Source: Octopus sinensis (Eukaryota). Taken from it: DNA of 23,437 nucleotides. A model generated the notes under the pieces. The model had not been told where the DNA came from and searched no databases. It saw only the letters and a list, made by a program, of their open reading frames with translations. Made by a program: the position numbers and the translations under genes. Each line of letters begins with the position of its first letter. The first letter of the stretch is position 1. The DNA lies in contig NW_021836886.1 of the NCBI RefSeq assembly GCF_006345805.1, positions 1 through 23,437 on the forward strand, written 5' to 3'. This document shows positions 10,517 through 21,568 of the stretch, in pieces.

Positions 10517-10912
10517 TCTTTATATATAAAAGTGAAGTTGTGTGTCTGTCTCCTACGATTTAGATTCCTAACTACTCTCACATTTTGCAGTGCAGTTTAA
10601 CCAAAACCGGGTATCTTATAGTCGTGATTCATATCAAGCCCTTCTGGGTATTAGCGCGCGTCTACGATGAGTCTACGATTTTTAAAATAATTTACCATAA
10701 TTTTTTTCCATTTTAATGCATTTTTTTCACAATTATAAGGGAGTAACTCTCTAAAAATGTCTACGATGAGTCAACGATTTAAAAAAAAAATTTACCATAA
10801 TTTTTTTTCCATTTTTAATGCATTTTTTTTGCTACTTTTTGGCTATAACTCGAAAAATGCTTATATAGTTATTTCCCTTACAAACCCGAGCAACGCCGGG
10901 CGATACTGCTAG
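10517..10912 (+). mobile_element. Non-autonomous Helitron
   Basis: A|TC start (TCTTTATATATAAAAG), subterminal hairpin CCCGAGCAACGCCGGG at 10885-10900, CTAG|T end, no TSD. Internal ~99-bp tandem repeat starting at 10660 and 10759. Confidence 0.88.
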
Positions 10913-12689: not shown

Positions 12690-12985
12690 TGATCACTGCT
12701 GGAATATCCATTTTATGTGGGGACTGACTTAGGGCTAAAAAAAAGAAGCAGGTAAGGACACAGTAGATAATGTATTCCTAGGTAGATATAAAATGTTCAC
12801 TGCTGGAATATCCATTTCATGTGGGGACGGGACGATTGGGACTGACTTAGGGTTAAAAAAGAAAAAAACAGGTAAGGACACAGTAGATAATGTACCCCTA
12901 GGTAGACATAAAATGGTCACTGCTTGGAAATTCATTTTAGGTGGGCACTGGATGATCACAACTGGACTGGGGCTGAACAAGAATC
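12690..12985 (+). repeat. Family-D tandem array (~105-120-bp units)
   Basis: TCACTGCT(T)GGAA recurs at ~12693, 12797 and 12918, with caggtaaggacacagtagataatgta in the first two units. Confidence 0.75.
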
Positions 12986-13789: not shown

Positions 13790-14567
13790 TTAACCCTTTA
13801 GTATTTAAACCAGCTATATCCGGCCAAAATAGTTAATCTGTTTTATGTTCAAACTGACCAGATCCAGGCCCTCACACCTACCCTACAATGTTATTCTATA
13901 TTAAGTAAGGTGGCGATCTGGCAGAAACGTTAGCACGCCGGGCGAAATGCGAAGCCGTATTTTGTCTGCCGTTACGTTCTGAGTTCAAATTCCGCTGAGG
14001 TCGACTTTGCCTTTCATCCTTTCGGGGTCGATAAATTAAGTACCAGTTACGCACTGGGGTCGATGTAATCGACTTAATACCTATGTCTGTCCTTGTTTGT
14101 TCCCTCTATGTTTAGCCCCTTGTGGGTAGTAAAGAAATAGGTATTTTGTCTGCTGTTACGTTCTGAGTTCAAATTCCGCCGAGGTCGACTTTGCCTTTCA
14201 TCCTTTCGGGGTCGATAAATTAAGTACCAGTTACGCACTGGGGTCGATGTAATCGACTTCATACCTATGTCTGTCCTTGTTTGTTCCGTCTGTGTTTAGC
14301 CCCTTGTGGGTAGTAAAGAAATAGGTATTTTGTCTGCTGTTACGTTCTGAGTTCAAATTCCGCCGAGGTCGACTTTGCCTTTCATCCTTTCGGGGTCGAT
14401 AAATTAAGTACCAGTTACGCACTGGGGTCGATGTAATCGACTTCATACCTATGTCTGTCCTTGTTTGTCCCCTCTGTGTTTAGCCCCTTGTGGGTAGTAA
14501 AGAAATATATATTAAGTAATTACACCATCAACATCTTGAAGATATGAGACAATGCATGATTAATTCA
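13790..14567. mobile_element. piggyBac-like MITE (family G), interrupted by a B array, right end missing
   Basis: Begins TTAA-CCCTTTAG and is a reverse-complement homologue of 17025-17223. It continues after the B insertion to ..gcatgattaattca and then breaks off. Confidence 0.7.
13909..14507 (+). mobile_element. Family-B SINE: one head plus three 184-bp bodies inside a single 12-bp TSD
   Basis: Bodies start GTATTTTGTC at 13957, 14141 and 14325. TSD TATATTAAGTAA at 13897-13908 and 14508-14519. Confidence 0.95.
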
Positions 14568-14649
14568 TGAGTTCAACACCCTAACCACTAAGCCATGCAC
14601 CTCCATACAGCTTGGCACCTGTGGCGTTGCAACCTATTTCTACAGCTAA
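14565..14649 (-). other. 85-bp templated insertion, exact inverted copy of 17938-18022
   Basis: Base-by-base comparison gives 85/85 identity to the reverse complement. Confidence 0.93.
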
Positions 14650-15250
14650 TGTAGTCCTAGATACACTATGCCTGAATAAAAGACTGGATGGTCATATCTG
14701 GAACATCTCTCACCATAGATCTGCTGGATGAGAGCTGACCTGGGCTTAAACAACAACTAAAACCATCACATTAGATAATGTAGTCCTAAATACACTATGC
14801 CTGAATAAAAGACTGGATGGTCATATCTGGAACATCTCTCACCATAGATCTGCTGGATGAGAGCTGACCTGGGCTTAAACAACAACTAAAACCATCACAT
14901 TAGATAATGTAGTCCTAGATACACTATGCCTGAATAATAGATTATTCACAGCTGGAACACATTTGATCATGGGTGTGTTGGATTAGGGATGACCTGGGGT
15001 TAAACAAGGAAAGACACAGATAATGTATTCCTAGATACACTATGCTTGAATAAAAAGCAGGATGGTCATGGTTGGAACATTTTCAATAATTACTCTGCTG
15101 TATTAAAGCAGACTTGGTGGTTAAACACTGCCACCAAAGACATTATATATCACACAGCCCGAGAGACAGAATGCCGGAATAAAAGACAGGATGGTCATAT
15201 CTGGAGCATCCCTTTTTATCGTAACAGGTCTAGCTGTCTCGGAGCAATCG
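14647..15250 (+). repeat. Family-D tandem array; the first two 129-bp units are near-identical
   Basis: TAATGTA(G/T)TCCTA at 14647, 14776, 14905 and 15021, with a diverged fifth unit. Units end in taaacaac. Confidence 0.85.
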
Positions 15251-17223: not shown

Positions 17224-17553
17224 TATATTCTTCTATACACAATCATACAAAGTTGGATATATATACACACACCCACAGAGGTATATTTAGTTTTATTTGC
17301 ACACACAAATGTAAAATGAACTTTCACCAAATTCTGACAAGGTATCCATCAATGTTTGTTTAGCCATCACTATCCTATAAAATACCTCCACAAAGTGTTG
17401 TGTAACTAAATTCGAAAACAGGTAGTTAGTTGCGAAGTGAAATTCTTAAACGTATCAACCACGGAGCATTGCCTTCCCAAGCAGGAGGAACAGGAGATAG
17501 GTTGAATGAACAGCTCACAGCGTGGTAACTAATCCATGGTTAAATAAGATACC

Positions 17554-17783
17554 TATTTCTTTATTACCCACAAGGGGCTAAACATAGAGGGGACAAACAT
17601 GGACAGACATAGGTATTAAGTCGATTATATCGACCCAGTACGTAACTGGTACTTAATTTATCGACCCCAAAAGGATGAAAGGCAAAGTCGACATCAGCGG
17701 AATTTGAACTCACAACGTAACGGCAGCCGAAATACCGCTAAGCATTTCGCCCGACGTGCTAACGATTCTGTCAGCTCGCCACC
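17554..17783 (-). mobile_element. Family-B SINE monomer, 14-bp TSD
   Basis: TSD TTAAATAAGATACC at 17540-17553 and 17784-17797. One head plus one body. Confidence 0.93.
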
Positions 17784-17815
17784 TTAAATAAGATACCGTT
17801 GTACCTTACATATTT

Positions 17816-21340: not shown

Positions 21341-21568
21341 AGCCGAGCTGGCAGAAACGTTAGCACGCTGGGCGAAATGCGTAGCCGTATTTTGTCTGCG
21401 TTACGTTCTGATTTCAAATTCTGCCAAGGTTGACCTTGCCTCTCATCCTTTCAGGGTCGATAAATTAAGTACCAGTTACGCACTGGGGCCGAAGTAATCG
21501 ACTTAATCCGTTCAACTGTCCTTGTTTGTCCCCTCTGTGTTTAGCCCCTTGTGGGCCGTAAAGAAATA
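21341..21568 (+). mobile_element. Family-B SINE monomer
   Basis: Head cgagctggcagaaacgttagcacg plus one body ending aaagaaata. Confidence 0.9.

Follow-up and report, generated by a model that had tools for sequence, protein, structure and literature searches.

The stretch analysed here, which we call the window, comprises 23,437 nucleotides of the Octopus sinensis genome (contig NW_021836886.1) and carries several copies of one SINE family. On its forward strand a single 12-bp target-site duplication, TATATTAAGTAA, found in the window at just two places (13897..13908 and 14508..14519), brackets one SINE head and three 184-bp bodies, and TRF delimits a repeat at 13957-14507 (period 184, 3.0 copies, 98% matches), which bears out the arrangement described in the earlier note. 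With the element numbered from 13908 (position 1) through position 233, the head (positions 1-48) occurs once, at 13908..13955, and is followed by body 1 (13956..14139, positions 49-232, with a tail ending in AAAGAAATA) and by two headless bodies entered at G49, body 2 at 14140..14323 and body 3 at 14324..14507, the AAAGAAATA end of the latter directly abutting the 3' duplication copy (a TA-class end). Words seen by eye at 13920-13931 in the head and at 13983-13995 in body 1 are A-box-like and B-box-like, respectively. Body 1 stands apart from the other two at positions 49, 63, 89, 169 and 201, and bodies 2 and 3 differ from each other at two, 194 (common to body 1) and 197 (private to body 2), a pattern that would fit a dimer with one later duplication, although the mosaic string of this array is a tie. 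Every unit of this subfamily carries TTTT at positions 53-56, which could halt pol III ahead of the B box.

A second array lies on the reverse strand at 4246..4800, where a truncated unit (4800-4622) is followed by 188-bp units at 4621-4434 and 4433-4246 (TRF: 4242-4797, period 188, 3.0 copies); its junction is the same, and AAAGAAATAGGTATTT is present twice in each of the two arrays. The earlier note was right about this shared junction and about a separate duplication, namely AGGCTTACAAAGAA at 4229..4242 (reverse strand; partner 4872-4885), but the array has no head, its 5' part being an inverted, twin-priming-like piece of positions about 70-141 (4801..4873, forward strand). The duplicated word belongs to the window's other SINE family, within a copy of which the whole array (4229-4885) sits. 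Behind the last tail stands a GGT that the other copy of the duplication lacks. Insertions of the SINE into that other family, in L139, L104 and window 4229-4885, lie at GGTAAG, AGAAAC and AGGCTT words.

The remaining copies comprise a single-body copy on the reverse strand at 17554..17786, whose duplication (17542-17553 and 17786-17797) starts with GGTAT after a C, matching the word at which the internal junction lies; a second single-body copy at 21344..21568 (forward strand) with a TA-class end; and a rearranged copy at 8295..8756 (forward strand; duplication GGTATGGAAAAATG at 8279 and 8757), which has internal repeats and GGT-rich inserts beneath one duplication. The window further contains unrelated short tandem repeats at 14647-14941 (129 bp), 9064-9529 (234 bp), 12720-12983 (120 bp) and 10660-10859 (100 bp), and, at about 6284-7701, a near-identical 736-bp duplication with copies of the other SINE family.

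Register and distribution of the junction

The repeated unit had been described as beginning with GT and finishing with AG. The true register of the junction is tail ...GAAATA | GGTATTT, the first G being position 49 of the SINE head (word TAGC|GGTATTT), and because the third body ends in ...GAAATA without a G, and TA- and AG-class ends likewise stop at ...AAAGAAATA, the unit is better read as G49...A232, with the G belonging to the sequence that follows. A splice-like AG|GT junction is thereby ruled out.

Exact words were counted on both strands of the 2.72 Gb genome. The junction 17-mer has 54,942 matches against 4 for the reversed control, a count that also takes in single copies whose duplication begins alike; a junction 23-mer extending into the body has 33,782 against 0 for its control, and the tail word has 114,946. 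The junction is thus fixed and genome-wide, as claimed, but it is not the only one: a second fixed junction leads from the tail to head position 16 (3,786 matches), the two entry sites being GC|GGTATT at 49 and GC|AGAAAC at 16. When 99 tails (from the first 100 listed) were followed downstream, 65 ran into unique flank, 29 entered at 49, three at 16, one elsewhere in sense and one in antisense; in 34 blind 10-kb stretches, one of ten tails was followed by entry at 49. For 203 junctions in pooled loci, a pool enriched for both classes, the alignment places 146 at 50/51 (49 in register) and 47 at 16/17, with the remaining 10 elsewhere.

Both junctions are also present in contigs of all four sequencing runs examined (three organism labels), no RNA run being listed among the carriers; since genomic chains carry the same junction sequence as a circle, and contigs show neither transcript ends nor strand, such contigs cannot tell one from the other. 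The A-box-like word precedes position 49 and is cut at 16, and the B-box-like word lies within the body, so that only the first unit of a chain would be predicted to have a full promoter.

Composition, age and growth of the chains

A duplication brackets 39 of 71 multi-unit elements, as opposed to 2 of 211 mismatched-flank controls, which upholds the view that multi-body copies moved as units; the share is 16/26 for chains with a tail-A end, 23/45 for those ending in another tail and 40/86 for single copies. Elements in the sample contain 1 to 10 units, and 48 of the 71 head-bearing multi-unit elements have two, only three having five or more. Arrays mix subfamilies and tails, and the last unit often has another tail. 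In 30 loci with a B1 tail, the B1 unit is headless after an A tail in 11, has its own head in 11, is truncated in seven and lacks an alignment in one. At least three other tails (B1, B2 and B3) have the first 167 positions in common with this SINE and look older. Full-length copies often stand head to tail behind an older tail-B copy, following its AT-rich tail (L001, L049, L053, L125, L154, L155 and others), an ordinary kind of SINE clustering, and short duplicated head pieces precede some full-length copies (L135, L060 and L183), possibly reflecting jumps at the RNA 5' end.

The internal makeup of the arrays bears directly on the proposal of a retrozyme-like route, in which excision or back-splicing of the body would yield a circle, about 185 nt long, for reverse transcriptase to roll on. 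The fixed junction would suit such a circle, as would near-identical units in some arrays (L061, L074 and L029) and a long hairpin formed by the head with its loop just before position 49 (z=-1.87). The circle is disfavoured, however, by 18 of the 29 arrays with at least three units, in which no middle unit can be derived from two others, by the foreign tails on which many arrays end and by L184, where the two junction types alternate in one array. Arrays moreover begin with a head, which a circle would lack, and folding of the unit is no stronger than that of shuffled sequences (z=+1.26). As the earlier note had reported, the unit is devoid of a hammerhead ribozyme, both in an Rfam search and in a search for the CTGANGA core; identity with a ribozyme or known RNA family was rejected, Rfam giving no meaningful match. 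We therefore consider the circle extremely unlikely.

In the other 11 long arrays a middle unit has at most 2 private changes. Its 5' part matches a later unit and its 3' part an earlier one in seven cases, the reverse in none, with four tied (the best triple per array being selected), a polarity of recombinant units that a circle does not give. L184 contains a repeated two-unit block with its 5' part from the last unit and its 3' part from the first, and in L108, L211 and L029 recombinant middle units with 0-1 private changes occur in elements that are about 10% diverged. The latter favour late exchange at the DNA level, short of proof, and slippage of reverse transcriptase on chain RNA would produce the same 5'/3' polarity.

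These recombinant units indicate that late duplication of units is real and raise the possibility that single copies were inserted and then duplicated in DNA, with the breakpoint fixed by microhomology. Such a process cannot yield a last unit of another tail or family under one duplication, as in the 23 bracketed elements of that kind, nor the association of tail subtype with target word described below; as a complete account it is very unlikely, and it explains the growth of chains, not their origin. The earlier assertion that post-insertion duplication would not reuse one breakpoint fails once a dimer exists, because exchange inside homologous bodies leaves the junction untouched.

First and last units also differ in age. 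Over the 94 columns common to all types, divergence is 0.049 in first and 0.076 in last units (n=84, one duplicated locus included; P=7e-7). This polarity comes from tail-B last units and could be inflated by heterogeneity among tail-B types; where both units have tail A, the values are 0.047 and 0.054 (n=32, P=0.22). Head-bearing and headless units, which have their subfamilies in common, are not told apart by any column at P<0.002; subfamily pairing is near random in 88 first-second pairs (permutation P=0.10 and 0.068) and, beyond one duplicated locus, these pairs include no sibling dimers. The suggestion of a multimeric source is supported as far as a multimeric source RNA is concerned, but an origin from a few multimeric masters with position-specific variants is rejected.

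Nested insertions, target words and a proposed cycle

At both entry sites, copies of the SINE are found nested within older copies in the order host head, duplication, new SINE, host body. The position-49 pattern (host head, short duplication, new head) has 59 genome matches, the first 30 of which represent 20 distinct loci; the junction follows the inner tail in 16 of the 20, host-specific letters are repeated on both sides in about eight, and four candidates are not nestings. For position 16 there are 16 matches, three of them clear nestings (two being dimers inside a host) and 13 not clearly so. Antisense nestings at the GGTAC word number 745, about 45-fold below the sense junctions, and are a dead end, unable to spread as chains. 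Rough scaling by the exact survival of the two pattern words (43/172 and 40/172) suggests a total of nested source loci on the order of 10^3, in agreement with a host head being kept in just 1-2 of 119 multi-unit elements. In front of some nested insertions (L224, L226, L239, G000:C3430 and C18) the SINE head is itself tandemly repeated without a body, with a period of 65-67 bp and up to nine matches listed, an arrangement that unequal exchange between the heads of host and new copy would produce.

The letters that follow a tail depend on its subtype. Inside arrays, where units are not independent, entry is at 49/50 after 124 of 137 TART tails and at 16 after 26 of 27 CAAT tails. At element ends, a few of which are junctions into diverged units overlooked by the alignment, TART tails (n=80) are followed by GG in 39, TA in 28, AG in six and other letters in seven, whereas CAAT tails (n=27) are followed by AG in 14, TA in nine, other letters in four and GG in none (P=3e-9 for GG). 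Single-copy insertions prefer the junction words too (C|GGTA and C|AGAA), matched to tail subtype. The letter before the duplication is C in 26 of 49 cases (P=4e-8 against a background of 0.18) and G in just two. Both head entry sites likewise have C before them, and the G-preceded GGTA at position 220, near the tail, accounts for just 20 junctions. In 5 of 60 good duplications, a G, GG, GGT or AGA follows the tail yet is absent from the 5' copy, as in the window's second array, and is therefore likely RNA-derived, so that the RNA probably runs beyond the tail.

R2 elements offer a precedent, since R2 RNA beyond the 3' end of the element pairs with the nicked target; R2 is autonomous and site-specific in rDNA. 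The non-autonomous element here, by contrast, would carry over a short target word from the site where it last inserted. It may well be that target preference is in this way written in RNA and heritable, 4-5 post-tail letters acquired by read-through from one site guiding the next insertion; GGTA and AGAA lineages would then home to the head of their own family, in a self-feeding chain reaction that gives roughly a third of tails a downstream body, and a third lineage would home to TA repeats.

We consider it probable that these elements represent a chain-forming SINE, which inserts into itself at fixed head sites, is read through, primes at any tail and subsequently grows by unequal exchange that keeps the junction. 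In such a cycle a new copy would land inside an older copy of the same family at head site 49 or 16, its head would likely be transcribed through its own tail into the host body, and head, body and host body would likely be copied onward as a single insertion; with the host head upstream of the new start and hence left behind, the product would be one head followed by n bodies. Whichever unit is used, reverse transcription would likely start at one set position after its ...AAAGAAAUA, while the few RNA letters that come next pair with the nicked target. Progeny would in this way be directed to GGTA or AGAA words, those of other SINE heads among them, and the loop would be fed. Further nesting, and unequal exchange within bodies with the junction kept, would lengthen the arrays. 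Direct support comes from the junction counts, target words, nested intermediates, age polarity and recombinant units; transcription by pol III past the tail, pairing of the RNA with its target, the enzyme involved and when the exchange took place are inferred.

Some observations speak against this cycle. About 10^3 equal nested sources would predict a few sibling dimers, host heads are few, the age polarity within tail A is not significant, and A-type letters open 15 of the 38 tail-B units that follow a 49 junction, compared with 6 of 85 B copies that have a head, a feature not expected from simple nesting. Many sources together with contraction of trimers would also explain the near-random pairing, the absence of siblings and the A-type starts. 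No partner LINE sharing the 3' tail was found in 50 reverse-transcriptase loci out of 150 listed, high tail scores there being due to SINE copies or a 15-nt fragment. A near-identical, high-copy reverse-transcriptase family on unplaced contigs (L257-L280), with open frames up to about 880 aa, does not share the SINE tail.

As no sibling dimers were found, template switching stays a live rival. Chains might be built anew during reverse transcription, with the cDNA of one SINE RNA switching, guided by homology, to an RNA that carries the junction, either within its second unit or at the letters behind its tail; nesting would then only have seeded the junction, a reading compatible with the cycle proposed above. 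Switching of template between SINE RNAs has been proposed (in the accessible part of PMC4824008), and twin priming and template jumping are treated in the accessible part of PMC2912911. The near-random pairing, the A-type starts of tail-B last units and the presence of the same subfamilies in head-bearing and headless units agree with it, as does a weak clustering of 5' ends around positions 48-54. Only 4 of 215 first alignments start at 50, however, and a reverse-transcription stop at 49/50 was rejected; also rejected was the idea that donor-type letters decay downstream of the position-16 junction, the set being biased by alignment starts and units retaining their own letters. Template switching would still require RNA running beyond the tail, nested intermediates with host-specific duplications do exist, and last units are older on average; it is accordingly possible, though rather doubtful, as the main source of the chains.

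Relation to known repeats and significance

With its head carrying pol III boxes and a central domain like the Meta/Sauria body, this SINE may be allied to the tRNA-derived octopus SINEs OR1/OR2 and the MetaSINE superfamily. PMC4824008 and PMC4758252 cite OR1 and OR2 as CORE-SINEs of octopus, and their accessible parts do not mention chains. SINEBase, in the accessible text of PMC3531059, describes a SINE as an interspersed element of <1 kb with at least 100 copies and at least 60% identity to tRNA, 5S or 7SL RNA over 60 nt. The 233-bp monomer, with its many thousands of tail words, falls within the size and copy limits, long chains exceeding 1 kb; ARAGORN found no tRNA, and Rfam gave no tRNA match at E<=10. 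Its duplications of 10-25 bp (median 16) and its 5'-truncated and 5'-inverted copies are marks of LINE-type insertion.

Like Alu and B1-dID, which are complex SINEs according to the parts of PMC3531059 and PMC10702118 available, the joined units move as one insertion; unlike these fixed families of complete or nearly complete units, downstream units here are headless, the elements sampled have 1 to 10 units and partners are freely mixed, and the position-specific left and right units that masters would give a fixed dimeric family are absent. The Dip/B1 multimers of the jerboa Allactaga bullata, as cited in the accessible part of PMC10702118, are comparable in that a large share of copies is tandem, up to eight, but those tandems are described as full-length, whereas here entry is at internal position 49 or 16 and one duplication surrounds the chain. 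In squamate SINE-derived satellites (sSat; accessible text of PMC10702118), arrays of a SINE part have a longer terminal unit and unequal recombination is invoked; that text contains neither 'TSD' nor 'reverse transcri' and reports no true dimeric SINEs. The octopus chains, by contrast, are short, dispersed and duplication-flanked, with two common junctions, and only a few long arrays come near the long homogeneous arrays, with four or more middle units, of a SINE-derived satellite. Metazoan non-LTR retrozymes (available part of PMC11722881) have units of 170-400 nt in tandem copies, as here, but their defining features are a hammerhead ribozyme and a circular RNA; in place of tandem copies of one unit, the octopus arrays are mosaic, with mixed tails. 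The family probably works like a complex SINE that is repeatedly re-formed by self-insertion and read-through, and behaves as neither a retrozyme nor a fixed dimer.

Tandem and dimeric SINEs are already known; no description of the proposed self-targeting loop or of these chains was found in the literature covered, subscription papers, Repbase and Dfam lying largely beyond that coverage, and the accessible text of PMC13282606 has no occurrence of 'multimer' or 'dimer'. Repeat libraries would divide such a chain-forming family into many artificial families; the accessible part of that recent octopus annotation counts 893 unclassified recently active SINE families, to which chains may have given rise. 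Read-through would also revive older SINE bodies and tails without a working head, and the results suggest that target choice in LINE-driven insertion may be set by RNA beyond the element end. The family provides a countable natural case for the origin of complex SINEs and SINE-derived tandem repeats, a single genome supplying the intermediates as well as a dead-end control.
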